Below, one piece after another: positions 8,184-62,505 of a stretch of DNA of 64,000 bases. The notes under the pieces are model-generated. The model was given only the letters and a program-made list of their open reading frames with translations. It searched no databases and was not told where the DNA came from. The DNA lies in contig OZ231126.1 in the NCBI GenBank assembly GCA_965153355.1, positions 42,346,001 through 42,410,000 on the forward strand, written 5' to 3'. The first letter of the stretch is position 1; each line of letters opens with the position of its first letter. Made by a program: the position numbers and the translations under genes. This DNA comes from Flaccisagitta enflata. Its lineage: Eukaryota.

Positions 8184-24177
<15,994 letters not shown>

Positions 24178-37343: not shown

Positions 37344-39513
37344 TATATAAGTACTGATTACTTTGTTTGGTGCCATCAACAAAACAGACTGACCCACAGA
37401 TGAGACACGGCGTCTTATAGTAGAAGTACATACACGTATTTTCGCATTTTGCAAAATCGCAATTCCTTTGAAGGAGTTACTGAATAAATTGTTTCCCCCT
37501 GCTAATCTGAGTCATGGACGTAGGGCAAGAGACGTCCGTAAGTCCCAGATTGTCAACCTTAGATTAGCGTCGATTCTAGATTCACAGGAAAGATCAAGGA
37601 AGGAAAATGAAGAGAAAACATGAAATCCAAAAATCGCAAAAGCGTAAGATGGTCAGTGGTAACCGTGCCCTGCCTAAGTAGATTGTGCGAAGTTGAGGGG
37701 GAAGCAGGGCAAAGTGTCGATGACATATGCTTTCACACATATGGGAAATTTTTTCCTTCTCCTCAGTCCCCCCCCTCAAATCCCAGTTTTGAGGCCCAAA
37801 TCCCAGCCTTTAAGACCCAAATCCTTGCCTAAAGGCCTAAATGCTAGCCTTCAGGCCTAAATCTCAGCCTGGAGGTTGAGGTCTTGGCCTCTTGGCTTGG
37901 ACTTGGACCTTAAAGCTGAGATTTAGGCCTCAAGGCCGGGATCTGAGCCTCCAGGCTAGGATTTGGGCCTTGAGGCTAGGATTTGGGCTTGGAGACTGGG
38001 ATTAGGCCTCCTGACTGGGATTTGGGCCTTGACACCAATTTTGGCCTTGAAAATGGGATGAGGGGGGTACAAAGAAGAAGGAGAATGAAAAAATACCCCA
38101 TATGTGTGAAAGCATAGGTCATGGACCCCTTCAGGACCGCTGCCCACAAAGGACCAACATACATGGCCCAGTTACAACAAGTGACGCGGGGTCACAATAT
38201 TGTTACGGACGGGTGGGCGGGGGCATCCAACCCCCATCCACACCCCAATCCCCACCCTCCCACAGACAAACATACTCAAAATGTATCCAAAAAAGCTTGT
38301 TTTTCCACTTTTCGACTCAATCATTATCAACGGATGGACGGACCAACGGACGGATGGACAAAGCCTCTTATTGAGTTGCGTGTCCGCGACTAAGAACCTG
38401 GGAAAAGGGGGCCCTGGAAAGCGGGCCCGGCAATAGCCCAGCAATGAGACTTCTGGATGGGGCCCAGGACTTTTCTGCAGATCTTTGCCTAGTAAGTCAC
38501 AGTGCAAAAGAATACAAAATTTGACAAGTCAAAACGATTTATTTGATATTTTTTTTTTGATATATGTATTCAAAGATTTTTTATTGAGAGAAAGGATTTG
38601 TGGTTGATAATCATCAATTTTTTGCATAGAAAAATGTTTTTCTTCACCAAATGCTTAGGAAATGTGAGAGAAAAGGGTGCGAAAGTGATGGATTTTTAAT
38701 AAAAATTGATCTTTGTGCATTGACATGTCTCGCGTAAAAAACCGAATTGATTTCTGAATTCAAAATTTTGCATTTTGAAAAACATGGCATCAGTCTAAAC
38801 ACCTTTAAGAAACAGGCCATGTGTGTAGAAATGCAAAATTTTGCTTTCAGAGACAGATTCGGTTTTTTTCGTGGCAACATCTCATGTTTTCCGTGCAATT
38901 CTTTTTAAAGAATTCTGTTGTTTCACTGAGTATGCTGCAACTTTACTGATGAATGTTGGTTGATCATTTGTTGCAGTGTAGGATCTCACCGTGGCCAAAA
39001 ACAGCCGAGAAACGCGGTTTTTGCACAGGCGTCACGGACCAACGGACGGATGGACGGACGGACGGACGGACTGACAGACGGACGGACAGACCCTCTTATA
39101 GAGTGTGATATATACAACAAAAATTTGATACATTAATCAGAGCAGTTGACTGATGGATGGACAGACATAATAGAGACGCTTAGAAAGTCACGATTGAATT
39201 GTTGAATTGCTGAATACTGGCTTTGATATCAATCTCATCATGGAACCGCCAACTGTGTGATTTGTGAGGCTAGGACCGAGAAAGCGCACAAAGAGACCAT
39301 TAAAGCGAAACTAGAACAAATGAGAGTTATGCAATGTACGAGCATTCTTCAGATCCTGATGATTGGGAAAAAGTCCATAAAGGGTTGGAGGCGGCGTTGA
39401 AGGAGCTGGTGCCGCGTGGTGTGACGGAGGATTTGGGAGTGTTAAGGGGCGTGGTGTTGCGTCATCTAACCGCCGACACATCCGTGGAGGCGGGTTAACG
39501 GCGACGATCTCTC

Positions 39514-41157
39514 ATGGGACTACGCGTGGTTAACGGCGCCGATCTCTCATGGGACTACTCCGACGCGCCTGATCCGGCAGCGACGGCTACCGGCGCTTCT
39601 CGACCGGCAGCAACGACTTCCGGCGCTTTTCCTCCGACAGCTTTGGCGCTCGGCGTTCCACTTCCGCCCCCGTCGACGTCTCGCGTCCCATTTCCGGCTG
39701 CGGCGTCGACGGACGTTCATCCTCCATCCACGGCTGCAGACGGCGCTCTTCCTCCTGATCCGGCGTCGTCGGCGGCACGTGCATCGGCATCTCCATCGTC
39801 CAACGGTTCTGTGGAAATTGACTCGTTTAGCGATACATCTACTCTCTGTCCTACGCCAGACCCAAGCGCAGCAGTCTCTATTGACATTCCGGATTCACCC
39901 CCATCCAACGCCATCTCAGTGTCGTACCCACCCCCACTCTCGTCCTCATCGCGCCCACCTGATTACTTTGAATTAACTCAAACCCAGGATATTCTAAATC
40001 ATAAAAACGTCCATGATTGGCGGTTAAAAAATCTCGCTTCTTGTGTGACCATCCCAGCAACCATCCATGAAGGTTTCACCTTACCTTATGGCGCGCCTGT
40101 TACTCGCAACGACTTTGCCACGCATACGACGACGCCGGTAAGGGCAACGGCCTCCGTCACCCTGCCGAAGACACTTCCTCCTCCCGTGTCTCTGCGTCCA
40201 TCGCATCTTTCCTCTGCATCCTCACTCCGCATCCCTCCCACTTCGCATCTTCCGCATCCTCACTCCTCCTCTACCGCTCCTCATCATGCTCCTTACTCTT
40301 CGCCTACTGCTCCTCATCATGCTCCTCTTCCTGCTCCAGCGGCGCCGATTTTGCCGCCGGTTGCTCTGGCGGCGTCGATTTTGCCGCCGGTTGACCCAGC
40401 GGCGCCGACCACGACGCACGTCTCTGTTGGCCCCCATTCGCTCTCCATGGCGCCACCGCTGCACATGCAGCTTCGCGACGATTCTCCACCACCGGAACCG
40501 CGTAAGCCACGCCCTCCAGGCCTAATGGAAGTAGAGGGTGTTGAGCTTATCCATTCGACCGACGGACATGTTTGCGGCGGACATCCTGAAACTCATTTGA
40601 TTTCAAAATTGCTCAAATTTGTCAAACCCGAGTTTAAGTCCCAGGAGAAGATTGATGTCTATTTGAAAAAAAAGAAGGAATTAATGAATTGCTTCAAGGC
40701 TACTTTTCCATCTGAAACCCTTTACACTTTGGTCAACATTTTCACATTGCAATGTGATTCTGAGCTTTGTTCTTACATTGAGGAATTAACTGCAAAGAAA
40801 AGTTATTTTACTTCTTTTGAAATGTTCCTACGTGAGTTTGAGGAGCAAGTTTACCCAAATTCACGTCAAGCCGCCTACACGCGCTTTATCAACAGATCAA
40901 CCCCTTCTGATGCCAAAATCGCGGTGGCATGGAAGCAATTCAAAGAAGACGCCAGGGTGGTTACTTTGGACCCACTTGAGCACAACATGCTTTTCATTAG
41001 GGGTATTCGCCATCGTGAGAAGAAAAAGGCGCTTCTGCAAAAATGGTTATCCACTAAAGACATGGACGAGGTTTTGGAAGAAGCGGTCTCCTTTGAATCT
41101 ACTTATGAAATGATGACTTGTTGGGATCAAGATGAAAAGGAAGGGAAAAGTAACTAA
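39514..41157 (+). pseudogene. Gypsy gag-like ORF (Pro/Ser-rich N-terminus, capsid-like C-terminal half), continuing in broken Q- and RGG-rich frames to ~41870
   Basis: FEMFLREFEEQVYP...AAYTRF...LFIRGIR...MDEVLEEAVSFE resembles retrotransposon Gag CA; position upstream of pol; ~35-bp tandem duplication at 39494-39558. Confidence 0.65.
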
Positions 41158-42039: not shown

Positions 42040-45000
42040 TTGGTGGTGAAGGGCTTCGATGGAAATCGCACCACAGCTATCACCCACAAAGTTGAACTCG
42101 AGTTGAACTTTCACCCCGGCGGGTTGAAGGATTACTTCTATGTTTGCGACGTTCCCCACGCTATTATTGGAAACGACATTCTCCAAAATGATGAGCACCA
42201 TCTGTCGCTGGAAACAGGAAAAAAGTTCTTTCATATTGGCAGTGACATTATTTTCACCAAATCTTCGCCATTTTTGTCCATTTCTGAGTACAAACGTCGA
42301 CGTCTCTCATCGGTTTCTAGCTACAGGAGAGCATATAAACACCACTGTCATGGTCGAAATTGGGTTAGACTACTCCAGGATTACCGTCTTGAGCCAAATT
42401 CAATCACTATGGTGGAGGGGTATGTGGATAATTACTTCGCTGACTCGCAAAGTTTCTTAAGTCTTTATGATGGCTCATATCACATTTACATACCATCTCT
42501 TTCCTTCCCGGATGGTAGGGAAAAGGCTTCAAATGGTCACGATACCCCACTATTGATCCCTGTTGCAAATAACCTGAGGTCAAAACTATGTCAACGTTGA
42601 CTATCTTAGGTGAAATGGTTCGTCACTCAACTGATTCACAGCAATATGATGCCGAGTGTTATGATATGAGGGAGTTGTTAGAGGAAATAGAAAGGAGAGA
42701 GATGGTGTCTGGTGAAGATATGACTTGTAAATATGGTATCACATCCCCATATGATGTATGCAATATTGACACTGATGAATTTTCAAATGTAAATAACCCT
42801 ACCACTCCTACCAACCAACCCAACCAACCTACCACTCCTACCAACCATCCCAACCAACCTACTACCCTACCGACCAACCAGAATTTCACTCCCGTGTTTT
42901 CGTCCGACATTAATCATCCTCAATACACCCCTCCCTCCTCACCTGTGCCATTTTCATCACTTGTTGGGAAGAATAAAGTGAGTGATGATGTTCTCGATCA
43001 AGCTGCCGGGATGGTATAGACTCTTCTTTGACTTGGTACGATGACAAAAATGGACCTGATGTTGAAATGGAGATTCTTTAAGACATCGATATTGAAGCTG
43101 AAAGGAAAAAAGAAGATGATTGTCCTTACTGGAAAGATAAAGATTCTTTTTTTTCTGAATTCAACTTCAAAGATTTGGCCCAAGAGCATTTGGACCCACT
43201 CAAAGAACTTCTATTTTCATTCCGTCACATTTTTGACTCTTCTGACCCTGCCCAATTCAGGCAGGGCATAAACATGAAGCCAATTGAGATAAAGCTTAAA
43301 CCCGGCATGACTCCTAAAAAACACAAACTTAGGCGTCCCTCTGATGAGAAAATTCGACACCTCAAAATTCACCTTAAAACGCTTCTCGATCAAGGCGTCA
43401 TCGCCGAATTGGACAGTAGCGCCGACGTCTACGCAAGTCCTTTGCACCTTGTTGTCGAGCAACGGTTCGTCAGTTCGCGCAACGCCGTGGTGGAAAAAAG
43501 TAGGGTAACTGCAGACCAGCGCCAATTAAATGCTTGTCTGGCCGACAGCTCATTTCCGCTTCTTCCAAGTAAACTGCAATGAATACCGTGAAAAGGTAGG
43601 AAAATGGGGGTTACACCACCTTAGCAATTCCTGATTGCCTGGGCCCTTCTTCCATCAGCTCGTCCTGAAGAAAGTTCTAAGTTGTTAGGCATTCACGCAA
43701 TTAATAAGATCTATTGTTACCTTCGCTTATCCCAAGGCCTAAAACTCAGCCCACCTATTGTCCAAAATTTCATCAGCAAGGCCATGCGCTGTCATGAGCG
43801 CGTCTTCCCGTTCATTGATGACTGTTCAGTTGCTTCAAAGAATGTTCAGCAGCATCTCTATGAAGATCTTCCCAAATTTTTCGCCCTCTGTTCCTATTAT
43901 CGGATACTTCTTAAACCTAGTAAGGCTGATATGGTCAGGAAATCGACTAGAGTCTTAGGGTTTCAAATTGGTGAATCTCAATTGTCATTATCCAAGGAAA
44001 AAGAGGTGAAAATTTCAGACCTTAAATTCCCAGTCACAAAAGATGAGTGTATCGCTCGCCTAGCCTTTCTGCAGTACTTTAATGGCGTGGCGCCAAAGCT
44101 CAGTGAACTTTTAGCGCCATTACGCCGTTTGACTAAATTAAAGGTAAGGTACACGCCCACTGACTTACACAGGGAGGCTTTTGACAAGGCCATAACTCAC
44201 CTGCAAGATAAGAAAGTGAATGTCATTCGTCTTCCGTCTTCTGACCCTTCAGACCAGTTCGTGCTGTGGACAGATGCATCGTCAAACTCAATCTCGTGTT
44301 TATTGACGCAATATATGCTTCCTCCATCGTCTGCACCTGATAATGATGGAAAAAGAAGATTGTATGTGGTAGGGTGTTTTTCTTCAGTCATCAAGGACAG
44401 CTGGCTTAATTTTCCAATATGGTTGCTCGAGTTGATCAGTCTCTACGAAGCGACTCGCAAATTCCGCCATCTGCTCAGTGCAAAAGCTTTTTGGGTGGTC
44501 GTTGATAGCTCTACAGTGGCTAACTGGGCCAGTCTTGAGGGTATCCCTAAAGACTTGGCCCGTAAGATCCTACACATACAGAAATTTCAGGCTAATATCG
44601 TCTTTGTTGAAAGTAGATTGCAAGCTGCAGATCCATTCTCACGCTTAGAATCACTCCCAGCACCATCTGGCACTTACCCAAAATTTTTGAAGGAAAGGAT
44701 CTACAACGCCCATGGACAAAAGGTGCCTTGGCAATCACTCTTTTCCCAACGAAAACACGATGAAATGATCGCCTTTTTTCATCGCCATCGGAGACAGCCG
44801 TTATCATACGCCGTCGACGGACCGTTGGAAGAGGAGGAGGAGGAGGAGGAGGAGGATGATTATGCTTCTCGACCCGACGGTGAATACACCATTGTCGTCG
44901 ACGATCTTCCGGCGACGCCGCCGGAAGTGACGCCCATCGCCGGCGCCATCCCGGCGATCCACACGTCGATTTGCGCCATATCTCTCGACGACGACGATTT

Positions 45001-46605
45001 AAATGCTGGAAGAGTGGAGGAGGACGATGATTCCCCGCCGGATAGTGACGTCATGGACAGTATCACACTGCCACGTTTTTCCGGAAGTCGTTTGGAGTTC
45101 GTGCGTCGCCTTCAAGCCGGCGACGATATTCTCGATCGTTGCCGAGACTTTTTGATGGGGACGACGCCGCTTCCCAACAAGGCCGAGGCTTTGTTATTAT
45201 CGGCGCCGCTGCAGGACTTCTTACGCCATCGTTCGCTTTTCCGACTGACAGACCAAAACATTTTAATCAGATTTTGGTTAAATCCGTTGGGTATCGTTGA
45301 CCCACTTATCATGGTGGGATCTAATGAATTTTTGAAGCTTGTCGGCGAAACTCATTCATTCAACTCAACATCATCATCCGGTCACATTGGTCAAAGAAAG
45401 ACCATGGATTCTCTCAAAAGACAGTACTATTCTTTCAACATGAGGCGGGTGATCAATTCTTACGTCCGTTCATGTCCCCAATGTGTGTTAAACAACCATC
45501 CCACCTGTAGGAAGGAAGACGATGGCAACAAAATCGCGACTGAGCCTTTATCGACCGTTGAAGTGGACGTGTGTGGCCCGTGGAACAATTTCAAGACCAC
45601 TTCCGGCCGAACGCCGTCATACTTTGTCGCAATTGACGCGGCGTCTCGATTTGCATTCACGTCAACGATATATTCGACCTCTGACGCCGAAATTCTTCGT
45701 TGTTTTCTCGATATGCGTCGCCATTTCTCCGGACTTCCTTCTAAAATACAATGCGATAACGGGTTGTTGAAAGAAAACTCACGCGCAAAACAATTTCTGA
45801 TTTCACACCACGTTTCAATCACACATGGACACGCGTACGTCAGCAGATCACAGTCTCGTGCTGAAAAAACTATCGGCACTATTTCTTGTCTCATCGTTAA
45901 ATACAGTACCGAGTGTCCAAAAATCGCTTTTCCCCGTCTGTTAGAGGAATCCACGCTCACCTATAACGCATCTCCATGTGACGCTCTCCCATGAATCTTT
46001 CCCCATTGATTTCTTCTATGTGCGTCCTCCAACTTTTCTTCGTTCTGCATCTCGACGAGGCCGCGACGGGCGCCGCCAAATCGCCGATCGACTGCGCTGC
46101 TACAATGCAGCCGGCGCCGTCTCTCCAAAACGACGTGGCTGCGCTCATCCGGCGACAGAAAAAACGATCTCCGACGAACTACACGCGCCGCCTCAAAAGC
46201 GGTGATTGCGTCTTAAAGAAACGCTCTGTGTGGCCTGTCGGAACGCCGAAGAAATACGGCCACAGAGTGGTTGTGGACGGATTTGTGGTGGAAGAACGAG
46301 TCGCCACAAATGCCTTTAAGGTTCGAAGTGTCGTGACGGGTGAACATCAAATTCTCCCAGGTGACGTGTTGATCAAAACTAAACTCACTGAAGATGAGTT
46401 ACGTCGCCTCGCGGACTCAATGAATGTAAGTTTGGAACTGAGTGAGCCAGAGATTGAGCCAGCTTTAACGCGTTCTCGTGCCAGGGCATTGAATAATGAT
46501 GCCTCGGTGAATTCCGTCGAAAAACTTTTCATCCATCATAGTGGAAAAAACAATTATAGTCTCGATTCACTTGTTGATTTTGGAATCTCTGATTTGTGGG
46601 TTTAG
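42040..46605 (+). pseudogene. pol: Gypsy pol (protease remnant, RT, RNase H, integrase, GPY/F-like tail) split by several frameshifts
   Basis: PR flap VKGFDG and IIGNDIL. RT ASPLHLV, RVTADQRQLN, LSQGLKLSP, FIDD. RNase H LWTDAS, LELIS, VVDS. IN H..GHIG...CPQC, VDVCGP, QCDNG, SQSRAE. Tail LKSGDCVL...GFVVEERV. Confidence 0.9.
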
Positions 46606-47770: not shown

Positions 47771-50700
47771 CTAAACTCGGTTCCTCCCATCGTCTCGATC
47801 GTCGTCGTCGTTTCTGTCGCGTCGAGGGCCTGGGAATAAAATGTAGTATACGTTTTTTTTTGAGCGGTGGTCGCTGGATATTTGCGTTAGCTCTCTCTCT
47901 CTCTCTCTCTCCTCCTCTCTCTCTCCCTCTCTCTCTCCTCTCTCTCCTCTCTCTCTTTCTCTCTCTCCTCTCTCTCTCCCTCTCTCTCTCCTCTCTCTCT
48001 CCTCTCTCTCTCCTCTCTCTCTCCTCTCTCTCTCCCTCTCTCTCCCCTCTCTCTCTCCTCCCTCTCTTCCTCTCTCTCTCCCCCTCTCTCTCCCTCTCTT
48101 TCTCCCCTCTCTCCCTCGTTTTCATCTCAATTTTTGGTTGAATTTTTCAACGCTTTTTCTAAATATTATCCATTTCAGTTCCGTTTTCATTTTCTCACGA
48201 ACTGAAAAATATTAACCACTGTTTCCCCGCCGGAAATATTTACTCATGTTCTATTTTGTCAATGACAAAAATATTATTCTGCACACTTTTTTTCCAAAAA
48301 TATTACTCAAAAATATTAACCGTATTCACAAATATTATACTATAGTTACATCCGGATTCCCTTTCTGCGCAATTTTACCCCTCTTTCTCCACCCCTCTTC
48401 CCCCCACTCTGCTTTGCGGAAGTCAAAAATCAAGAAAGGGTGCTGTTAGAAATGTATGTCCGTCCGTTTTTTAAGTATGTGTGCTTTGTCTCTTTTGCGT
48501 GCTTTTGACTTTTCCTCTTTCTCGATTATTCAATGCCCGCGTCTTTTGTTTCTCGCCATTTTTTATATTGAACGCTAAATGGGTAACCATATGGTTGCGC
48601 CTTGTATTTTGTGCCATTTGTTTTTATTACGTAGGCGAATATACGTAACTCGTCTTTCGTATCATCCAATTTTTGGATTGATTGATTTTATTTATTTACG
48701 GCATTGCTTCTTAAAGTGATTGATTGATTTTTCGTGATCGTTTGAATGCGCCCTTGGAATTCACTAATTTCAATAATCTCTCATCTTTTTATTGCAGATA
48801 AACTAATGAACGGACAATTAACGTTAGTTTGACTTCGACAGACTGTGGGTTGAAACCAACGAAAGTGGGCCTAAAAGTAAGTTTTATAGACGCGTTTTTG
48901 CTTTTATTAACGTTGTTTTTATCTTGTTTTCCGGTCTGTTATTTTTATCTTTTGCCCTTTTGCATTTTTATCGCCGGATTTTAGTATGGTTTTTATCGCT
49001 TGCCCGATCAGCTTGCTATAGGGATGATATGGATGAATTTAATGGGATGGGCCGGGGCAGGGGCAGGTATTATCAGGTGGCATGGGCTCTGAAGAAGATG
49101 AACATGTTGTCATGTGCTGTTTCTGTCCTTTATTGTGTCCTATCTCGATTTCATGTTATCTTTTGCGTTTGCTGATCACAATTAACGCCCACTTTCCCTT
49201 TCATTTTTCCCCCTCTCTTCAGTTGTTGAAATTTTTATGGAATAAACGAGACGATCGCCTTCCTATTTTCCAATCGGACAACTTTCTTTCACCACAAGTC
49301 GTCAGTCAGATAGACGCTCATAGACAGTGCCAGTTGAAACTCGTGGGCGTAATTATATTTCAACAATTTAAAACACGACTCGACTCTTTCCATCTTCGAC
49401 CTCCGAAAACGAAATTGGACATAGCCGCGCGAGCGACGACACCGCTCGACTGCCTAACGTCATCTCGTGTATCTCACTTCGGTTTGAATCAGTGTCCGAG
49501 GTCGAACCGTTTACGCGCAATGAGGAATGACATCACTGCGGAAATGGAAGGATGCCGGCGCCTTTTCGACGCCGTTGCTTGCGCCGAAGGGACGAATGAC
49601 TTCGACACGCCGCCTGTGAATCAGATGGCGCTCGACACGGCCTTCGGGATATGGTTACGACTTTATATCATGCAAGGCAAATGGCGCTCGACTTCGTGCC
49701 CGGCGACCCTCTTCGATTCGTGCGTCTACTTTGCGTCGAATCCGGCGCGAATGGGACTCCATGCGTTTCTTTGATCGTGAGAACTATCCAGAGGGTTTTC
49801 CTTCCAACGCCGACATCGTGAACGCAGTGCATAACGACATCGGGAATCGCAAAAGACCCGTCAATGAATTCTCATGGAACAGTCTCCCAACTGATACTCA
49901 CGCCGCCCGTGACAATGTTACCGGCGCTCCGACTCCAAGGATGCGAACGTCTTCGCCAAACCCCGACGGATCCGAGTATCTACCACTTCCGGTCCCGCGA
50001 CATGGTGCGCAATCTCCAACTGGCGGCCAATTTTTAAATCTGCCGCCGATCCAAAGAGGAGATGCCGTCAATCAATGGGTATCAGATTTGGTCTCGGAAA
50101 TTGAACCTGCGCGTGCGTCTCCGATGGAGCAAGCTGACGACATGCTTGCGGATCTCGACGACGCCGACGCTCTCGCAAGAGGCCGCGGGATCATCAACGG
50201 ATTGACGCCGCAGGAGAGGGCGAGGCGACGCTTCGCCAACAGGAGTGCTGAGAGAGACAGATGGGGTAGGCAGTTGGAGGAGGAAATGCGACAAGGCCGT
50301 CGGCTGATTGACGATATGCAGCAGCAACAACGGGAGGAGGAGCAGCGACAGCAACAGGAGCAACAGCAGCAGCATCAATTGCAGATGCAGCAGCAGCAAC
50401 TCCAACAGCAACGTCAACTCCACCGACCACAGGAGCAGCAGCAAACGACGGCTCAGCGGCAGCAGCAAGAGCTGTTGCAGCAGCAGCAGTTGCAGCAACT
50501 CCAACAATTTTGTCAACAAGATCAACAACAACATCAGATCCTGCAGCCGGCGCCACAACCTGTGGCTCAACAACAGCAACAATACGATCAACAGCAGCAA
50601 CAGCAGCAACAGCAACAACAACAAGAGCTGCGACAACATCAAACGGCAATGCAGCCGCACGAACAACAACAACAGCGGCAAAACGATGCAGGAGAACATA

Positions 50701-53700
50701 GCAACAGCAACAACAGCAGCAACAGCAACCTTCCGCCGCGATCCCAGCGGTGGTAGTGGATCCTCCAGCTTCAAATAACCATCCTGTCGAAAGCATGAAC
50801 GTCAGTGAGGAGACAGAAGAAGAGAGACAGCAACGCCTTGCAGATCAACGTCTGCGCATGATGGCTGAAGGTGAAGGTGGTGGTGCAGCAACAGCTCCAA
50901 AGGCGCCGATCGCGGTGCCATTGGGATTCCAACAGCGAAGCTCATCACAAGAAGACAAAGAGTTATACGACAGAATGTGTAACTTTCGCCAGCAGCAGCA
51001 ACGAGATGAAGATAGAAGAGCAGGAGTATTCAACAATGCGGCAGAAATGCAACGAAAGCACTGGAATAGCCTGAACGACGGCGGCATTGGTGGAGCTTTA
51101 GAGCAGCGGGATGTGAAGCTTAGACAACTGTCTGAGCTGGACCAGCAGCAGCCGCAGCATCCGCCAAAAGACCGTCGATCTATCTTCAGAAATTTCAATC
51201 CGGGATTGTTCAATTCGAACATACAGCAACGTCATGCGCAGTCAGTGGAAACGTCCGTCAAGCAGCCGATGCAGCAGCAGCAACAGTTGGAGCAGCAGCA
51301 GCAGCAAGGACAACGTCAGCGTCAACTGCAGCAGCAGAACGAACAGCAACAGCGTCCTGACCAGCAACAGCAGCTTCAACATCAACAGTGGCAGCAGCAA
51401 CGGCTTCAACAACAGCAACAGCATCAGGATCAGCATCATCAAACCCCAGCAGCAACGATTCTCCCTACCGCACCGGAAGTGATCTTCGAAGCAGATTGGT
51501 TCTGCTAGAAGGGAGACTGGTCTTCCCCATCAAGAGGAAAAGGTCTTCAACACAGCCGGAAGCGGAGGTGATGCAACGGAGGCGATGCGCAGGAGGCAGA
51601 AGCAGGAGGCCGCTGACGCGAAGTTGGCACAGCAGCTGCAAGATAAAGAGAGAAGAAAAGTCGCTCCCAAGAAGACAATGAATGGATTGCAGCCGAAGGC
51701 GCCGAAAGTAGCGCAAGCGCCTCTAGCAACGCCTCAAGCGGAAGTCATCCAGCAGAATCAACGTTTGCAGCAGGAAGTGGATAGTTTGAAGATGCAGATT
51801 CAGCAGAGAGACTTTGACCTTGCCGCAGCGAGAGCAGAAGAAAAACAACGTAAAGAAGAACAACAGCGACAGTACGTCCGCCAAGATTTTGATGCTCCCC
51901 GATTCCATCAAGATGATCGTCAACAACAAATGAATCAGCAAAAGGAAGTTGGGTGGAGTGTAAAAACCACCAAAAAGAGATCTCCGGTAAAAGTCGGGGG
52001 TCAATACGCCTTTCGTCCAACAACCCCCAGCGTATCATCAAGTGGAGCATCATCAAGTAGCCCGTCAACCGGAAGTCCACGTTCAGATGCCCAACAATCC
52101 GGCTCTGGACAGGTTTTTGGAAAGAGCGACGTACAATGATCTCATGCGAGCAAGGGAGGTCGGCCTCAAAGCGTTGGAGAGAGCAAGACCTGAGAAGCCT
52201 CTGCAGGAGCTTTCATCCACCGACTTCATGATGTGGAAGAGGAAGTTCAAAGATGCTGAGAAGCATGAAGGCTTGACGCAAATGGACATCTTATTGGAAT
52301 TGCCTAAGTGGTTTGCTGGTCCGGCAAAAGAGATCATTGAAACTGCGACGATTGATGCAACTGAAGCGACAGCAAGAGGAGAGATTGACGACGCCTTCGC
52401 AAAAATGGACGTCGTCTTTATGGCAAGGCGCTGCAACATTGCGGCGCTGTTCAACGAAATCGTCGCGGAGGCGAAGATCCAGTCGGCCGACCATGCAAGG
52501 CATTTCAATTTGTCTGCAAGGTTGCAAAAGGCAAAGAAGATTGCGAGGACCTGTGGAGAAGTGCAACAATGCTATCGTGACGAGCTGCTGCAGGAGATCC
52601 TCAACAAGAGGGTCCCTCATCTTGCAGATAAATTCTGGGAAAAGCAACATGAAGCAGCCCAAAATGGACAATTATTTTCATTCGACAACTTGGTCAATAT
52701 GATCGAGACATGGGCGGTGATTCAGCGCAACAAAGGCGCAAGCTGCAAAACAGCATCAGTGGCAGCAGTCGCAACTAAAGAGAAAGAAGCGCCATCATCA
52801 TATGAAGATGCTTTGACCAATGGCAAGCAAAAGACGCAGTCGACGGACCGCTGCAACGTCTGCAGTGGAATGCATCAAACAGAAGACTGTCATCAGCTAT
52901 TAGAGTTGGAAGTGGACGCGAGAGTTCAAAAGATCATGTCTCGTCGTCTCTGCTTCCACTGCCTCGCGCCAGGACACAACGCCAAAGGATGCGCGAACAG
53001 ACCGACTTGCCAAACCTGCAAGAAGCGGCACGCAACGATTCTCCACGGGCGCACCTACAAGAAAGAAGAAAAGGAAGAGAAGAAAGGAGAAAATAAGCAG
53101 GGAAATAAAGTACCGCTGGCTCCCTTCAAAAAGTCAGAGGATGCGGCTGCAGCAGCACCAACAGCTCCGTCGACGACGGAGGCAGCCGATCCAACGGAAA
53201 TCATCTCTCCTAACGCCACGGCATGACTGGCGGCGACGGCAACGTCGCGGTCCGTCTCTTCATTCGACGACGTTGTCCGTCCGATCGTTCCAGTGACTAT
53301 CATAAACAATTCTTCGGGTGCGCAGAGGACGATATACGCTATGATCGACTCAGGCGCTGATCGCGACGTGATCAGTACCAGTGTCATTCGCAGTCTTCTG
53401 ATTCCAACAAAAACAGTGCAAATGACGGTGATTACTGTGGGAAGTCATGTTGTTGAGGATCGTTTCATCGCATCATTCACCATGCAATCGGTCGACGAGG
53501 AATACGTCGTCGACGTCAACGACGCGTTGGTGGGTGATTTGTTAACGAGTGAACGCGACATTCCTCCTTTTCTCCGCGACCTATCTGACCAACCTCACAT
53601 CAAAGGCGTAAAATTTCCAGAAGCTGAAGGCGGTGTGATGATGATCATCGGAGCGGCGCATGCGGATGCCGCCGTCGCTCAAGAAATCCGCCGAGGGCCT

Positions 53701-56700
53701 TCAGGATCTTTGACTTGCTTCAGATGTCTATTCGGTTGGACTGTATGTGGAAAAACGGGGAAGAGAGGACGAGATATTGCATCGATCAACGCTATCGCGA
53801 CGGATGACCGCGTTCTCAACGACAGCATCGATCGCATCCTCGACAATCGCGTCCTCAACAGCAACATTGACCGCATCTTCTACCATGACTTTGCATCGTC
53901 AATCGTCTCGCAAGAGGAGATGGGTGATTCCCTGGAAAACATCAGAGCGTGCAAAATGTTAGAGGAAAAGACTTATTTTTGCCCAATTGTGGGAAAATAT
54001 TTCGCTCCCGTCACATGGAAATTTCATCACGACAAAATCATGGAAATTCTGAGAAGAGTGAAATCACGACCGACTGCGATGAAGCGGCTCGGTAACCAAC
54101 GTTTTCGCTTCAAGCGTGATCCAGCCTTCAAAGAAAGAGTCTTCCGTGAAATCGAGAAGTTTTACGAGACGGGAGTGGCGGTTGAGATTGACAGCGTCGA
54201 CGACGACGACGGCATTGAGAAGCCGCGCTGGTACTTGCCGCTTCATATTGTTGAATTGCGCGGCAAAACGCGCGTATGTCACGATGCGCGTGCGGCGACC
54301 GACGGGATCTCACTCAATGATTTGCTCGTCGGAGGTCCAAACTTGATGAACAGCTTGATGGACATCCTCATGCGTTTTCGTCAGTGGAAGATCGCCTTTA
54401 TGTGTGATATAAAGGCGTTCTTCCACCAGATCCGCGTCCATCCTGACGACGCTGATCTGTTCAGATTCTTTTGGTTCAAAGACCGTACTCTACGAGAAGC
54501 CATTTTGAATCTGTTCTTATCACATGTCTTCGGCAGCCAATCCAGCTCATTCGTCACGTCTTTCACCGTCAGAAAGCATGCTGAAGTAATCCGGCCCAAA
54601 TATCCCTACAACGTCTACGATCTTATTCGCTTCGGCTTCTACGTCGACGACGGAAGTGGGGGTGGGGATTCGGTCGACGAAGCACTGCAGTTGAAGGTGG
54701 ATGCAGTGGCGGCGATGGCTGAAGGCGGGATGGATCTTGTGAAGTGGAAAAGTAATGCGCGGCAGTTGATGGATGGAGATCCGAACGTGCCAATTCCCAT
54801 CTCAGATAAGCAAGATGATGCGCCGACGAAGGTGTTGGGCGTCTCATGGCTTCCGGCGGAAGACGTCTTCATCTTCATCTGCGACGAGGAATTCAAAACT
54901 CTTAGAGCAAAAACACCTCGTCAATTGGTCTCCATGCAAGCTAAACTTTATGATCCATTGGGATTTTGGAGCCCAAGCGCATACATCGGCAGACGACATC
55001 TTCAACTCTGTCGTCCACAGGAAGTGGGATGGGATTCGCCCTTGGAAGAGAGCGTCGAGGAATCCTTCTTCCGCTACACTTCGTCTTGGCCTCTTCTACA
55101 ACAATACCGAATTGAACGCTGGTGGAATGGCGGCGTCGACAATAGTGACATTGCGGAAATAACAATTGAGATCTTTTGCGATGCGGCTCCAAAAGGCGGA
55201 TATGGAGCAGTTGCATATCGACGTCAAATCAATCGAGATGGAGATGTTCACATTTCATTCATCGCCTCCAAATCCCACGTCATTCCACTTAATCCCAAAC
55301 GTGCTTCTCATCACAACAGCGTTCCACGCGTCGAGATTGTATCCGCAGAAAAAGCAGTGCAGCTCAAACGCTTCGTCGGAAGGACCATCGAATTGGACAA
55401 TCTTGTCGTCAGATTTTGGTCTGATTCTGAATCTGCACTGAAGATGATTTACAATCCGGCGAAACCAAGGCCTGTATTTTTCGCCAATCGTCTCTCCAAG
55501 ATCCATAGCGGGTCTGATCCTCAGCAGTGGCGCTGGGTTGATTCGTCAAATAACCCGGCGGACCACTGTAGCAGAGGCATCCAGGCCCATGAAGCCGAAA
55601 AATGGCGTCAATTCCATCACGGTCCTGCATTTTTGCGTCTTCCCGAAGATCAATGGCCAAAGACGAACATCGCGACGTGCCCTATTTCTGCACAAGTCGC
55701 CGCATTGTATGTGGCTGAAAGTGAAAAGAAACAAGTGGCTGACGCGATACTTCTTGCAGCAGCTTCTCGGGGAAAATGGATGCATAAGTTGCGGATCATC
55801 GGCATGGTTCTTATCGCAGTCAAAAGGTGGAGAGCGTATCCAAGGGCGAAGACACGAGCAGCAAAGGATCTCCTTCCTAAACCGGAAGTGACGCAAGACG
55901 TTTTGGAGGAGGCGCGCAAACAGCTCGTCAAGTCAATGCAGCGGCATCATTATTCAGACGTCTTCGAACAATTGGAGTTGGGAAAAGTCTTTAAACCAGA
56001 AAGCCGTCATGACTTCATCATAAAAATAAAGAGATGCGGAATTTGAATCCTTTCGACGACGACGGTATCGTCGCGTCGGTAGTCGATTAAACGCCGACAT
56101 CGCACATGACGCTAAATTTCCCTTCATCCTGCCGCCAAAAGACGAGAATGTGAAATCATTGATTCGCCATTATCATCACAATGATTTTCACGCGGGTGCA
56201 AAGCATACATTGTGCCAATTACGCCAATTTGTGTGGATTACAAAAGGTCTTCAGGCTGTCAAGAGCGTCGTCAACACGTGCTTCAGATGCCAGAAGAACT
56301 TTAAAAAGAACGCAAATCAGCAAATGGCCAATCTTCCATCAAATCGCGTCAATCCTGCGCCTGTCTTTGCAGAGACTGGATTGGATGTCATGGGGCATTT
56401 CCTAGTTAAGATGAACGGGCGTGCTGATCATAAGGTGTGGATCGCAGTGTTCACCTGTTTCGTGTCACGCGCCGTCCATGTGGAATTGCTCTTCAACATG
56501 TCAGCCGATGCGATGGTAAATGCAATCATCCGCTTTGCAGCAAGGCGCCCAGGAATCCGCCGTTTCACTTCAGATTGCGGGACGAATCTAGTTGGCGCCA
56601 ATAATATCCTCAAGAAGGAAATGGAAGCTTGGAACCGCTCGTCAACTCCCGAATTGCAGCGGCGCGGCCTTCGGTGGGATTTCATCACGCCGAGAACACC

Positions 56701-59700
56701 CCACTATGGAGGGGTGTGGGAGAGAATCGTCGCTCTCTTTAAGCGCCATCTTGCTTCCATCTCGACTGGCGCCATCCTCCACGTCGACGCCTTCAACACT
56801 GCCGTTGTCGAAGTTGAAGGAATTCTCAATCGCCGTCCTCTGACAGCGCTCAGCGATGATCCAAATGACTCTGAGGCCCTCACACCGAATCATATCCTCA
56901 ATCCATCGGCATCCGGTCACGCCCCTCTAGATCTGGTGCAACAAGGCGTCAACTCTGACGCCGACTCTGCGAAGATTCAATGGAGGCGTGCGCAATCGCG
57001 TGTGGATGCATTTTGGAAATCGTGGAGGGTCGAATATTTGTCGCTTCTTCACGCGCGAAGCAAATGGTCGAGATCCGAGAAAGACTTTGCGGTGGATGAC
57101 ATGGTCATCGTCATGGACGAAACGCTGCCTCGTCACAATTGGAGTTTAGGACGTGTCATGGGCGTCGAGGGATCGTCAGCCCATGTCCGGAGGGCTCACA
57201 TCCGGCGCCAAGATGGAAAGATCGTGACGAAAGACCGCACGAAGCTCGTGCGGCTGGAATTGGACTCATAAAAAACGCTAAGTTTTGAGAGAGAGAGAAA
57301 AAGGCGCATGGGCCTGTCCATTAGTAACTATAGATATGAGTGATTGAAACTCTGACTTGTTATATTTACAAAGAGTTGTTATTCATATTTGGTTCTGATT
57401 ATCCATGCTTTCATCTTTCCTCTTGTCAATTATGTTGTCCATTTCCACTTACACATCAAAACACTGATTCATTCGCTCTGTCTATATGTACATATTATTG
57501 TGCCAAAATCCGTTCTTACCATTATCAGTTCTCAATACGAACATTTCAAAGCTTCCGCTGACGACGTCATTCCATCTACGAAGTCAGTTCGCATCTTGAA
57601 GTCGCTCGTCGGAGTCAAGATGTCCCGTCAGCAGCGTCTCGAGGCAGAGGCCGACGTGTCGACGTCGTACGGATCCTTGGATCTCCATCGACTCTTCAAC
57701 GACGGCTCGACTCGAGAAGGATCTGCATCCACGACGTCGTTCGGGGCGGAGGAGGAGGCTGTCGCGTTGGCAGCCTTCAATGGCGACCTTCGTTCCGTCG
57801 TAGACGCAAAAATGGCGAATAAAAAGCGTCAACAAGATGATGCGTTGGTAAATCGTCAACAGCCATCCAACGCCGTTGATCCCGCGTCGCTTCCTCCATT
57901 GGTGGTCATCAGAGATGGAGGTTCGAGGCGGATCTCGATCAATCGGCCGCCGACGGACTTATCCACCACTTCCGCGGCGGCGTCATCATCATCGGATTTG
58001 CCCCCATCGCCTCGCCAATTTTGCCTTGATTTCGGTCGCCCAGCGTCTCGTGATCAAGCGTCTGCAGCTGCACGTCAACGCAGCGGGGGCGAAGAGAGAG
58101 AGATCGGTCAATGATGGAGCAAGAGTGGAGGAGGAGGGGATGGAGACAGAGGAGGAGGTGTTAGTGAATGGGGAGGCGGTGGAGAAAGACATTGACCCGG
58201 AAGTGGACACTGCGACGCCGGAAGAGAAACACCAACGGATGCAGGCGCGTTGGTGGTATCGTACCATCAGTCCGGACGTCGGAGTATCTCTCCTCTTCAA
58301 AGAGTTTGAAAAACTTTCAGTGTGCTGCAACAAACAAACTCTCATGCGCTCATCGGCTAATCAAACAGAGCTTGGCTCGGAGACTCTGGAGCGCAAAATC
58401 CAAAGTAATAAGAGAAGGAGGGAGCATGATAAGGAGGTTCGTCGCATGGTCCAGGCGACGAAGAGGAAGAATGCGGCTCCGAAGCCTCCTGATGCAACTG
58501 CAAAGTCATCTGCAGCAACTTCCGTCGACGCTTCCGCAACTCCACCAGCGGTATTTGTGCTCGACGCAGCCGCAGCTACATCAGCGGCAATTCACTCTAC
58601 AGCATCAGGAAGTCGTCAATCGCGCCCTGGATTGGTTCATCCCCCAAATCAGCAGCAACAGGGTCCTCGTGACGTCACTCCCTCACAACAGTCGAAGAGA
58701 TCACGTCGGGGAAAGACTCCACAAATGCGCAACGTGCCGAGTCAACAAAAAGGGCCAGATTCCAAAAGCAAAGGCCCCCTTCAAGCGCATCTAGGCGCGC
58801 CCCCTGCAGCAGTGCGCCCAAAGGCCAAGGAGAAGCTTCAAGTGGTTAGTCGACGGCAGCGTTGGCAGCAACCCAGAAGCTGAATCAGGCGCCTGGGGCA
58901 GCGGCAGCAAAGGGGAAGAAGACCAAGAGAGCTGGGAAGAAGCATAAAGCAGCAACCAAGGGAGGTTCTACTTGCGGTGCTTCGGCGTCCGCTGTTAAAC
59001 CTCAAGTCTCTGGTCAGCAGACGGGAGCGTCTTCCTTTCACTCGCAGCCATCAAAAGCAGCGGTAGGAAGCGAACTAGTTGGCGGTGCTTCAGCATCTGT
59101 TAAAGTTGGTGTAGCGCCTCGTCAGCAAACCGAGTCTGCCCAAGGTCTGCAGCAAGTGCAGAACCCGCCTCCCCCGTCGGATCCAGCCTTTGATCCTGCG
59201 CATGGACACCACATCGCCGAGTCATTGCTACGAGAAGCCTCTTCACTGACCTCAAACGCTCCATTGGGTGTGGTGAAGAATTTAGCATCAAGGCTTCCGA
59301 AAGACTTCTTCGCGTCGCTCAATCCGCGTCAACGAGTTGAAGCGGCTCGTCAAGTCTTAGACGAGAGGATTCGTCGCAACATCCAAAAGGAGAGAGACGA
59401 TGCTCGTCAAGCAGCAATGGCTGCGGACAATGAGGTGGTCAAAGGCAATAAACGAGTCGTGGAACTGGAGAAGCAGCTTGAAAAGGAGAAGCAGGCCTGT
59501 GCGATGAAGGCTAAGAAGAAAGAGGAAGCTGTGGAACGCGCAAAGGCGGCTATGGCCGTCGACTTTAAAACTGCGTCCGCTGTGCGTCCTAAATTTCGAC
59601 TGACGCCGAATTGCGATGCAGCATCTCCACCTCCAGCGTCTTCTCCTGCAGAAAAAGTCGGTCAGCAGATCCTGTCGCAAAAAGACGCTCCCAAGCCTGG

Positions 59701-62505
59701 GAATAAGAAAAATCGAACCAGGCCTTGGAAAAATCAGACCGCCAGCTAAACGCTGATTGGTGCCACGCCCAGTTGCTGTTCAATTTAACTACCAATTTGC
59801 AACATGGCGTGGAGAGCGCCGCCATTCGCTGAGGATCGTATTCCACCATCACATCCTCATCCCATCGATGGACAGGCCGGCCAAGTCGGGGGCGCTACCC
59901 GGGGCGTGGGAATGACGTCCGCCCCGGGGCCTGGCGAAAAACGCCCGCGTAAGTATCATGGTTTGGGAAGGGTTGAGGTTGAGTTTTTGTGGTAAATTTG
60001 AATCTGTGTACGATAAGAACTTTACTAATCAATCTGCCCCCATTTTTTCTCTTTCTTTTTCTTCCCTTCGGGGAGGATACATTCTCAGACGGCTGCACCA
60101 CCTGCGCCTTTCGATGCGGTCGCCGTTGACGACATCATTTATCGCCTTTCGCCCACGGATTGACGAGGTGTTGGAGCTTCCGGAATGACCCGCTCGTCTC
60201 TGTAATGGAGAAGGCGCAGGTGATGTGGTCGTTCCATGATGCTTACTAATTTGTTTTTACCTTACAGATTCGTTTTTATATATAGTTAGTAACTTATTTA
60301 TTTTGTCTTGTTTTGTTTGGTTCCTTGGAACATGTAAATTTTTGTTGTGTTTGTTTTAGACATGGTCTTTTTAGTCATTATTACGAATACTTTCGTATGA
60401 CATGTTTTAGTAGTATGCCCCTACTCATTATTTTCCACTCTCAAGTCAAATCCCAGGCTTGGAGTGCTCCAAGGCCCGTTCCCCTTTCCCCCCCCTCTTC
60501 CCCTTAACTTTTACAGAACGGGTGCCTCAACCTCCTCGTCGCCGCCTCGTCTCCATCCGCGTCATCGTGATCGTTGAAAATTTGCTGGTGGTGGATCCTT
60601 TCCGGACGGGAATCATCATTCGTGCAGTCGTCGATCTGTTGATAGTTGGGGTGGGGATGTAAGAGGCGGTGGACGGGGGGGGCTGTATCTATGTAAATTT
60701 TTTTTAAGGAAGGTAGTATCGGTTTTTTAGTAGGGTTTCCCCGACTGGAAACTAGGTGTCGGATTTTTGAAATTCGTGAAATTCCAAAAATGGGGCAGAA
60801 TGTTAGAAATGTATGTCCGTCCGTTTTTAAGTATGTGTGCCTTGTCTCTTTTGCGTGCTTTTGGCTTTTCCTCTTTCTCGATTATTCAATGCCCGCGTCT
60901 TTTGTTTCTCGCCATTTTTTATATTGAACGCTAGATGGGTAACCATATGGTTGCGCCTTGTATTTTGTGCCATTTGTTTTTATTACGTAGGCGAACATAC
61001 GTATCTCGTCTGTCGTATCATCCAATTTTTGGATTGATTGATTTTATTTATTTACGGCATTGCTTCTTAAAGTGATTGATTGATTTTTCGTGATCGTTTG
61101 AATGCGCCCTTGGAATTCACTAATTTCAATAATCTCTCATCTTTTTATTGCAGATAAACTTATGAACGGACAATTAACGTTAGTTTGACTTCGACAGACT
61201 GTGGGTTGAAACCAACGAAAGTGGGCCTAAAAGTAAGTTTTATAGACGCGTTTTTGCTTTTATTAACGTTGTTTTTATCTTGTTTTCCGGTCTGTTATTT
61301 TTGTCTTTTGCCCTTTTGCATTTTTATCGCCGGATTTTAGTATGGTTTTTATCGCTTGCCCGATCAGCTTGCTATAGGGATGATATGGATGAATTTAATG
61401 GGATGGGCCGGGGCAGGGGCAGGTATTATCAGGTGGCATGGGCTCTGAAGAAGATGAACATGTTGTCATGTGCTGTTTCTGTCCTTTATTGTGTCCTATC
61501 TCGATTTCATGTTATCTTTTGCGTTTGCTGATCACAATTAACGCCCACTTTCCTTTTCATTTTTCCCCCTCTCTTCAGTTGTTGAAACTTTTTATGGAAT
61601 AAACGAGACGATCGCCTTCCTATTTTCCAATCGGCCAACTTTCTTTCACCACAAGTCGTCAGTCAGATAGACGCTCATAGACAGTGCCAGTTGAAACTCG
61701 TGGGCGTAATTATAGGTGCGTTCTTTCGCCTCTGGCACGTTCACACTGAGTTCACTTACTGACATAATGGTAGACTTTATGTCGGTTTTCTTCTTCTTCT
61801 TCTCCTCCCTTCGAGGTCGCTTGTTTCTTGCATCGTAATAGTCCTTGGATGATAACCGCCACGACGTTGGTGATGGTGATGCCGATGACCGCCCATGATT
61901 GGGATTCCAGCTGATCTGTCTGTTCGTCGATTTGGTTGTACTCCTTTCCGCACATTAAGGGCGATAGGACCAGATCGCTCCTCTCGAGGCATCGTGAGAT
62001 GTGGAGCACGTCTTTTCCATTTTTGCCTTTGATGGGGCTAGGACTGATGATGATGAGACACGTTTTGCCATACTCTGTTGGTAGAGAAGATACAAAAAAT
62101 TAAATTAAAATTCAGAAATTAGTGTGAACGTTGTCGCTCCCCTCGGTGATTGTGGCGCCGATCAGATTAAATAATGCATAAAATTTTCTCACCGTATCCA
62201 AAATCGCGTATGACGGCTTGTTTCGAATCGAGCTGGCAATCTGGCTTTTCTGGACGCGTGCTCAACCATTGCACGATGCGTTGATTGAAATCCCCATTGC
62301 TTTCGCCGTCACGTTGTTGCGGGGTCTGTGAAAAAAATTTTAGCGTTGGCCTTGAATATTTCTTCTTTCAGCGAAGAAGGAAGATTTAGGGTAGGGTTAG
62401 ATCACGAATCTGCTGAATTGGTTATCTCACCTCTGATTGGTCCGCTACGCTCCCCGGGAGGAGGAGGACGGGGAGAATGAAGGAGAGGAGGGGGTGATAT
62501 CTCAT
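47771..62505 (-). CDS. Uncharacterised type-I membrane protein; exons 62431-62505, 62193-62325, 61760-62074 and probable last exon 47771-47829 (193 aa, or 176 aa if it stops at 61752)
   Basis: Signal peptide MRYHPLLSFILPVLLLPGSVA; GT-AG introns of 105 and 118 nt with matching phases; 4-Cys ectodomain; TM WAVIGITITNVVAVIIQGLL then RCKK. The GTCA|GTAAGT donor at 61759 is in phase with TTTTATTCCCAG|GC at 47830. AATAAA at 47476-47481. Confidence 0.68.
47891..48116. repeat. Degenerate (CT)n tract
   Basis: Visible directly in the sequence. Confidence 0.9.
48444..49357 (+). repeat. BEL 5' LTR
   Basis: Starts TGTTAGAAAT; about a dozen differences from 60801-61714 by eye; Inr-like TCAGTT at 49219-49224; AATAAA at 49241-49246. 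Confidence 0.95.
49358..49368 (+). promoter_or_regulatory. Putative self-primer binding site TTTCAACAATT (no tRNA-type TGG PBS)
   Basis: Reverse complement of AGTTGTTGAAA at 49221-49231 (one G:U pair). Confidence 0.5.
49520..53226 (+). CDS. gag: BEL gag: polyQ-rich N-terminal region in several frameshifted pieces, then capsid and triple Cys/His knuckle in 52042-53226
   Basis: CNVCSGMHQTEDC, CFHCLAPGHNAKGC and CQTCKKRHATILH form the BEL/Pao three-knuckle signature; start position uncertain. Confidence 0.85.
53227..57271 (+). CDS. pol: BEL pol (PR, RT, RNase H/peptidase-A17 region, integrase, C-terminal DUF5641-like region); frameshifted at ~56030-56100
   Basis: PR AMIDSGAD. RT WYLPLH, SLNDLLVGGPNL, DIKAFFHQI, FYVDDG. 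KVLGVSW, YDPLG, FCDAA, YGAVAY, NPADHCSRG. IN HHNDFHAG..CFRC, GLDVMG, SDCGTN, GGVWER, FWKSWRVEYL. Confidence 0.95.
57620..59749 (+). CDS. BEL accessory ORF3 (~710 aa if two frameshifts are corrected); basic, low-complexity, coiled-coil, no TM
   Basis: Three overlapping GC-rich ORFs (57389-58114, 57876-58883, 58862-59749) between integrase and PPT; ATG at 57620. Confidence 0.55.
60786..60800 (+). promoter_or_regulatory. Polypurine tract of the BEL element
   Basis: AAAAATGGGGCAGAA immediately before the TG of the 3' LTR. Confidence 0.8.
60801..61714 (+). repeat. BEL 3' LTR
   Basis: Copy of 48444-49357; ends ...GGGCGTAATTATA directly followed by TSD GGTGC. Confidence 0.95.

Follow-up and report, generated by a model that had tools for sequence, protein, structure and literature searches.

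How does a retrotransposon with long terminal repeats (LTRs) start reverse transcription when the sequence behind its 5ʹ LTR offers no site for the 3ʹ end of a transfer RNA (tRNA)? This question is raised by an element in a 64,000-nucleotide stretch of the Flaccisagitta enflata genome (GenBank assembly GCA_965153355.1, contig OZ231126.1, positions 42,346,001 to 42,410,000), hereafter called the window, whose own numbering is used throughout. A single LTR element was delimited in the window (48444-61714; 13,271 bp), and to judge from the domains of its pol gene and their order it belongs to the Belpaoviridae (BEL/Pao elements). According to the virus taxonomy committee ICTV, members of this family have genomes of 4.2-10 kb, carry an 18-nucleotide site that pairs with the 3ʹ terminus of tRNA-Arg or tRNA-Gly, and are primed by host tRNA (PMC8742986). 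The answer that we favour, with slightly more confidence than doubt, is that this element would instead be primed by a piece of its own RNA in the manner of Tf1. Self-priming is established for Tf1, in which the first 11 nucleotides of the RNA are complementary to the sequence following the LTR and RNase H cuts between bases 11 and 12 (PMC7175516).

Where a primer must end depends on where the LTR ends. The two LTRs of the element are 98.7% identical, their alignment showing 10 substitutions together with two indels of one base, and the same pair was also detected as repeat families D2/D3 in the window. The borders are as follows.

48439 to 48443, no strand: left copy of the 5-bp target-site duplication, GGTGC, from flank comparison; present as a single copy in the unoccupied-site contig described below
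48444 to 49357, plus strand: 5ʹ LTR, 914 bp, TGTTAGA...ATTATA, from alignment with the 3ʹ LTR
60786 to 60800, plus strand: polypurine tract AAAAATGGGGCAGAA, adjoining the 3ʹ LTR, from alignment of the LTR borders
60801 to 61714, plus strand: 3ʹ LTR, ending ATTATA, from alignment with the 5ʹ LTR
61715 to 61719, no strand: right copy of the target-site duplication, GGTGC, from the flanks and the unoccupied site

The flanks meet the element as ...GGTGC/TGTTAG on the left and as ATTATA/GGTGC... on the right. Neither a second copy nor a solo LTR of the element is present within the 64-kb window. Positions 48300-49900 were also compared with four public sequencing runs, including a DNA run from the host (X1), a marine-metagenome run (X3) and an RNA library (X15), and the junctions at the LTR ends reported here are drawn from the 13 of 71 loose-end rows listed. 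In the host DNA run, 9404 contigs matched, and their depth, added up, is much greater across the LTR than across the flank. In the raw-read RNA run X24, no read matched. One contig of the marine-metagenome run represents an allelic or paralogous unoccupied site, because it passes from the left flank, ending at 48443, directly into the 30 nucleotides that follow the right-hand GGTGC. This join is not an artefact of assembly, since an overlap of 5 bp is too short for a 31-mer graph to produce it. In the same run, among the rows listed, three kinds of sequence adjoin the LTR at the 48443/48444 junction: the flank seen in the window, a different flank, and the letters of the polypurine tract AAAAATGGGGCAGAA, found as a loose end before 48444.

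A second insertion is visible in an RNA-library contig, which extends through the LTR to ...TATA and then enters unrelated sequence. The original prediction had read non-canonical TG...TA ends from LTR identity and the 5-bp GGTGC duplication, and the unoccupied site together with this second TATA-ended insertion bears that out: the ends TGTTAG...ATTATA are real. They are unusual when set against the surveyed LTR consensus, according to which almost all LTR elements, those of Bel/Pao among them, share the conserved termini TGTTRNR...YNYAACA (PMC3601003). The LTR of the second insertion contains an additional T behind 49352. This variant, which lengthens the A/T run before the LTR end, was also seen in nine contigs of the host run and three of the marine-metagenome run.

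Behind the border fixed in this way, no TGG occurs in the 57 nucleotides following the 5ʹ LTR, and the first is found near 49415. The absence of a TGG-type tRNA site, which had been part of the original prediction, therefore holds, and the element lacks the tRNA primer site of described Belpaoviridae. This leaves its membership by pol intact, because the site is a property of described members and not a phylogenetic definition. ARAGORN found no tRNA genes in the window, nor any in 23 of the 34 fetched metagenome loci. Rfam gave no gathering-level match in the window, and a permissive scan of 49340-49420 returned only a chance match to a CRISPR repeat (E=1.7). Given the LTR border, any primer must end ...GUUGAAA-3ʹ and must pair at, or only a few bases away from, 49358, and the predicted 5ʹ end of the element's own RNA fits this exactly. 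Among the variants listed for runs X1 and X3, none of at least 5% falls in 49221-49231 or 49358-49368, and across thousands of contigs none of at least 5% is listed in the leader segment 49279-49506.

Both of these runs also contain family variants in which 103 or 323 nucleotides are skipped right after 49373 (joints to 49477 and 49697). Such variants keep the LTR and the first 16 nucleotides after it and then diverge, and a dip in depth is seen at 49434-49487.

The sequence at the primer position finds its complement inside the LTR itself. The sites concerned are the following.

49219 to 49224, plus strand: initiator-like TCAGTT, recognized by motif only, which would place the RNA start at A49221
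49221 to 49231, plus strand: candidate self-primer AGTTGTTGAAA, the first 11 nucleotides of the predicted RNA, defined by pairing with 49358-49368
49241 to 49246, plus strand: sole AATAAA of the LTR, from a motif search; with a predicted cleavage site it implies a repeated (R) region of roughly 35-50 nucleotides
49358 to 49368, plus strand: primer-binding position TTTCAACAATT, without TGG, directly after the LTR, from sequence and pairing

The 11 nucleotides TTTCAACAATT pair with 49221-49231 through 10 Watson-Crick pairs and one G:U pair, and A49357 with T49232 adds a twelfth. Within the 914-nucleotide LTR, the primer site has no other partner of this quality than 49221-49231, and none that forms a better duplex. 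Such pairing is rare by chance: a comparable partner anywhere in the LTR is available to 45 of 20,000 11-mers taken from the window, and an equally good duplex arises in one of 300 dinucleotide-shuffled LTRs and in one of 1000 shuffles of the primer-site segment. The complementarity is sound, and its main part lies well above chance.

The LTR contains two copies of TCAGT (at 49219 and 49302) and a single AATAAA (at 49241). The complement lies at the sole TCAGT that is upstream of AATAAA, with the predicted start A49221 20 nucleotides before this signal. The claim that an 11-mer beginning at the A of an initiator consensus, 20 nucleotides before AATAAA, pairs with the primer position is thus confirmed as regards the complement itself. 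Because a self-primer can work only between the RNA start and the polyadenylation (poly(A)) site, the location of the pairing fits a self-primer. This functional interval covers roughly 40-60 of the 914 LTR positions, and a chance match inside a 60-nucleotide interval is expected on the order of 1e-4 (from 45 / (20,000 x about 900 positions)). Initiators of the TCAGTT type are best known from arthropods. The motif may thus serve as a hint only, the host possibly not being an arthropod. An AGACG at +29 to +33 was considered as a downstream promoter element; it lies one base off the Drosophila position of +28 and was not used.

Predicted folding of the RNA depends strongly on where it starts. 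The 11-nucleotide helix is present in both the minimum free energy and the centroid folds of 49221-49400. For RNA beginning at 49221, the inner ten pairs form with a probability of 0.69-0.99 in all three contexts examined and the two end pairs with 0.35-0.79, whereas helix probability drops to 0.02-0.03 in four of six contexts in which the RNA begins at 49150 or 49000.

Two further observations of the original prediction contribute nothing to this case. The LTRs do differ at base 12 of the RNA-start segment, in that the 3ʹ LTR is one base longer there, behind base 11; this difference carries no weight for self-priming, because a single minus strand gives rise to both LTRs of a new copy. A possible 5ʹ-3ʹ cyclisation between the unique 3ʹ (U3) segment 49180-92 and the unique 5ʹ (U5) segment 49343-54 likewise rests on complementary sequences that do exist (-16.9 kcal/mol). 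We rejected it as a chance-level pairing, since the U5 end has an equal or better partner in 49 of 300 shuffled LTRs and a better one in the real LTR near 48548 (-18.0 kcal/mol).

If the element is self-primed, transcription would start at A49221 in the TCAGTT initiator, and the first 9-11 nucleotides of the RNA would fold back, or pair in trans, onto 49358-49368 after U5. A cut by RNase H after base 11 would provide a 3ʹ-OH opposite T49358, and the first base copied would be A49357. Copying that begins at A49357 would explain why U5 and both LTRs end in ...TATA and not in CA. The strong-stop DNA would then transfer via a short R (about 49232 to about 49260), and the RNA joined to it would be AGUUGUUGAAA. 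Self-priming is the commonest known alternative to priming by a tRNA 3ʹ end: among plant LTR elements, self-primers are predicted for 12%, versus 2% for half-tRNA primers (PMC6317226). Of the Tf1-like scheme proposed for this locus, the rare and correctly placed 11-nucleotide complement stands, the priming step itself is predicted, and the side helices known from Tf1 are absent.

A number of findings weigh against self-priming, among them one from control elements. Among the 16 fetched metagenome loci of at least 4.5 kb, five have direct repeat pairs and two of these (L011 and L015) have clean LTR borders; of the remaining three, one (L012) was excluded because its LTR ends are too decayed, and two (L006 and L013) have partial LTRs at contig ends. 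Both clean controls start with TGTT, have TG...CA ends and carry TGG, at +1 and 0. One of the two, L011, nevertheless contains a complement of the 11 nucleotides after its LTR, again with 10 Watson-Crick pairs and one G:U pair, at LTR nucleotides 23-33, where U3 is expected. An LTR complement of the primer site alone is therefore no proof of self-priming, because this control has one in addition to its TGG site, and it is position alone that sets the present pairing apart. The sites in L011 (7612-7622, 7955-7964 and 8029-8039) combine the 11-nucleotide complement near the LTR start with a 10-nucleotide direct copy in U5.

The duplex itself is also weak (-10.7 kcal/mol): it is short, A/U-rich and, inside the site, has nine Watson-Crick pairs in a row. 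The G:U pair at RNA base 2 (49367) is apparently fixed in the family, with no variant of at least 5% among those listed. By inference from Tf1, the pair should become a Watson-Crick pair (T to C) within a few cycles, if the whole primer is copied into plus-strand DNA; about half of Tf1 cDNA has a full primer-site copy at its 3ʹ end (PMC11042837). The G:U may thus point to an effective primer of nine nucleotides, to a capped 5ʹ end that is copied incompletely, or to the absence of self-priming. A rule used for predicting self-primers in silico asks for at least 10 bp of the 5ʹ LTR to be complementary, by blastn, to a region 0-5 bp after the LTR (PMC6317226). Measured against this rule the element is borderline, with nine contiguous Watson-Crick pairs from offset 0, ten when the final base of the LTR is included, and 11-12 once the G:U pair is allowed.

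Structures known from Tf1 are missing as well. Tf1 RNA forms a three-duplex 'pretzel', in which two further helices join neighbours of the primer site with LTR sequence downstream of the self-primer, and LTRs of the Tf1 group always end in CA (bioRxiv 10.1101/2022.12.06.519325). For the element, the best candidates for the two side helices are matched by 127 of 1000 and 278 of 1000 shuffles, the stability of the 180-nucleotide leader does not exceed that of shuffled sequences (z = 0.54), and the LTR ends in TA. The RNA-library contig that runs from U3 through R and U5 into a flank represents either read-through or DNA; it says nothing about the RNA start, because it spans U3 to the flank.

Finally, the primer site may owe its sequence to something other than priming. 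Positions 49359-49365 fit the right-end repeat YNYAACA, as do 80 of the 64,000 positions in the window, and ATATTTCAACA (49355-49365, at and just outside the 5ʹ LTR end) equals, with one indel, the inverted LTR start TGTTAGAAAT (48444-48454). The pairing may therefore have another origin, and the YNYAACA just outside the LTR may be due to chance or may represent the relic of a former LTR end now serving as primer site. It may also matter for the integrase, should the cDNA end retain a primer-site copy by analogy with Tf1. A fuller version of the relic scenario would have a Belpaoviridae lineage drop tRNA priming and evolve self-priming of the Tf1 type by recruiting its former right-hand integrase repeat (...YNYAACA), so that the U5 end moved eight nucleotides inwards to ...TATA and the integrase was forced to accept a TA end. 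We regard this history as rather unlikely. If true, self-priming would have arisen in all three LTR families, the Metaviridae, the Pseudoviridae and the Belpaoviridae.

The most serious competitor to self-priming is a host RNA, which could be an internal tRNA fragment, as in elements of the copia/Ty5 type, or a small RNA ending ...GUUGAAA, with the helix between 49221-31 and 49358-68 being fortuitous or serving a purpose other than priming. This is a real possibility, if somewhat short of probable. Ty1/copia lineages are an established case of priming by half-tRNAs (PMC6317226), and a helix that does not prime could mask the primer site or circularise the genome, as the complement in L011 might do beside its TGG site. 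The apparently fixed G:U, the weakness of the duplex and the missing side helices all sit more easily with this explanation. However, no candidate RNA has emerged, the permissive Rfam scan around the site having given only its chance match, and the primer end that would be needed is A/U-rich. Such an end is unlike typical tRNA acceptor, anticodon or T-arm sequence, which counts against a host RNA. Furthermore, chance would have to supply not only an 11-nucleotide match (about 0.2-0.3%) but also its placement at an initiator A before a poly(A) signal.

It is highly improbable that the LTR has simply been delimited wrongly, with a true end at ...TATATTTCAACA that would give inverted TGTT...AACA termini and a 3ʹ LTR that has lost its last eight nucleotides. 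This alternative, raised in the original prediction, draws on the YNYAACA fit and the mirrored LTR start at 49355-65 described above. However, the unoccupied site has nothing between the flanks but the element and one GGTGC, so that a loss of eight nucleotides would need to have ended right at the duplication. The second insertion also passes from ...TATA into unrelated sequence, and thus both right-hand junctions visible among the rows listed end in TATA and neither ends in ...TTTCAACA. That the primer site is degenerate and the copies spread by segmental duplication or recombination, and not by normal reverse transcription, can hardly be right: this copy is defective and lies inside other repeats, but its 5-bp duplication is precise, an unoccupied site exists, several different flanks adjoin both LTR ends, the LTRs have stayed 98.7% identical, pol is intact in relatives of 98% and 76% identity, and the leader is free of listed variants at the level given above. 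The family has been recently active and is present in very high copy number in a marine animal, and its priming, by whatever primer, consequently works.

The assignment of the element to the BEL/Pao group rests on its coding region, which comprises the following parts.

49761 to 53226, plus strand: gag region, in four reading frames in this copy, CAG/Gln-rich, with one CCHC knuckle at 52951, from analysis of open reading frames (ORFs)
53341 to 57268, plus strand: pol (protease, reverse transcriptase, RNase H and integrase of BEL/Pao type), from Pfam and from tblastn of P0001 and P0002
57356 to 59749, plus strand: three overlapping ORFs of 252, 343 and 299 amino acids after the integrase, without a family match

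Within pol, Peptidase_A17 (7.9e-29), DUF5641 (1.2e-19) and Integrase_H2C2 (2e-9) pass the Pfam cut-offs, and RVT_1 (17.5 bits) and rve (23.1 bits) appear as weak matches below them. These matches uphold the BEL/Pao identity given in the original prediction. Pfam detected no chromodomain in the integrase ORF. The structure of the element also agrees with that of Belpaoviridae in its 914-bp LTRs, its polypurine tract (60786-60800) and its 5-bp duplication. At 13.3 kb it is longer than the 4.2-10 kb of the family, partly because of the Gln-rich runs in gag. These CAG/CAA runs, at 50300-51400, amount to 37 overlapping repeat copies.

This copy is defective, since gag is spread over four frames and pol is broken by a frame change between 56031 and 56072 relative to P0001, an uninterrupted relative of 1312 amino acids (tblastn). 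The three ORFs after the integrase may be the broken remains of a third gene, env-like or other; no Pfam family was found in any of them, and an Atlas search with the 343-amino-acid ORF gave no usable match.

A protein search returned 88 homologues with the same pol domains and showed a graded clade: P0001 is 98% identical, P0002 76%, and P0003-P0025 36-51%. The pol of both P0001 and P0002 is intact. None of the 34 metagenome loci yielded a clade member that carries an LTR, and the clade is represented among them only by L001, with 1.1 kb of pol at 98%, and by L002, with 3 kb at 41%. Searches of viral contigs (by protein, alignment and DNA pattern) and of genome contigs (by alignment and pattern) returned no relatives.

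How the element relates to known systems can now be stated for each of its parts. It resembles canonical Belpaoviridae (Semotivirus: Tas, Pao, BEL and roo-type elements) in its pol domains and their order, its 5-bp duplication, its polypurine tract and its TGTTRNR left end, but it differs in lacking a TGG site, in its TA end and in its size (13,271 bp versus 4.2-10 kb). It resembles Tf1, Tf2 and Tj1, which are chromoviruses of the Metaviridae, in having no tRNA site and an 11-nucleotide complement at the RNA start, which is here a predicted one. Unlike the Tf1/sushi elements, it has a BEL/Pao pol, no chromodomain, one G:U pair, no pretzel helices and a TA end. Thus, by sequence the element falls outside the Tf1/sushi group, although it may work like a member of it. 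For Tj1 and further elements of that group, self-priming has been inferred (PMC4600332; bioRxiv 10.1101/2022.12.06.519325).

Self-priming has also been predicted in silico for the plant lineages Tcn1 (Ty3/gypsy) and TAR (Ty1/copia) (PMC6317226), and has therefore already been proposed in more than one family of LTR elements. The present case is like these in that an LTR complement of the sequence right after the LTR was predicted in silico, but it concerns another host kingdom and another element family. A different type of pairing must also be kept in mind. In Ty1 (CYC5/CYC3) and at the bipartite primer site of Ty3, 5ʹ-3ʹ RNA contacts occur at the primer-site region and do not replace the tRNA primer. 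Contacts of this kind offer a possible reading of the complement in L011, which may represent a 5ʹ-3ʹ RNA contact in BEL/Pao elements; the U3-U5 pairing of the present element is at chance level.

A full-text literature search found no report of self-priming for BEL/Pao elements, although an earlier mention is possible because supplements and most subscription journals were outside its scope. In their available text, PMC6317226, PMC2864245 and PMC5443660 do not link BEL/Pao elements with self-priming, and the main text of two BEL/Pao surveys (PMC3118150 and PMC554778) does not use PBS, tRNA or 'primer binding'. Self-priming of the element, if true, would thus bring a known mechanism to a third family of LTR elements, which is plausible and unproven. 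It would imply that escape from dependence on host tRNA has evolved repeatedly, and it would provide a natural case in which the position of the primer, and not a CA dinucleotide, sets the end of an LTR. Annotation pipelines that accept LTR elements only with TG...CA ends and a tRNA site would overlook this very abundant family or place its borders wrongly.

The element is embedded in other repeats. Its own flank at 48300-48430 is repeated in the host DNA run. Upstream, on the same strand, lies a pol of Ty3/gypsy type (43625-46605; RVT_1, RT_RNaseH, Integrase_H2C2 and rve), and such sequence is also found in an ORF at 39499-41157. Farther away, at 8184-14341 on the minus strand, the window contains a host gene of the p66/GATAD2 type with exons for a GATA zinc finger and P66_CC; among its best named relatives, proteins of nemerteans, annelids, molluscs and brachiopods predominate, joined by one from a mammal (Tupaia).

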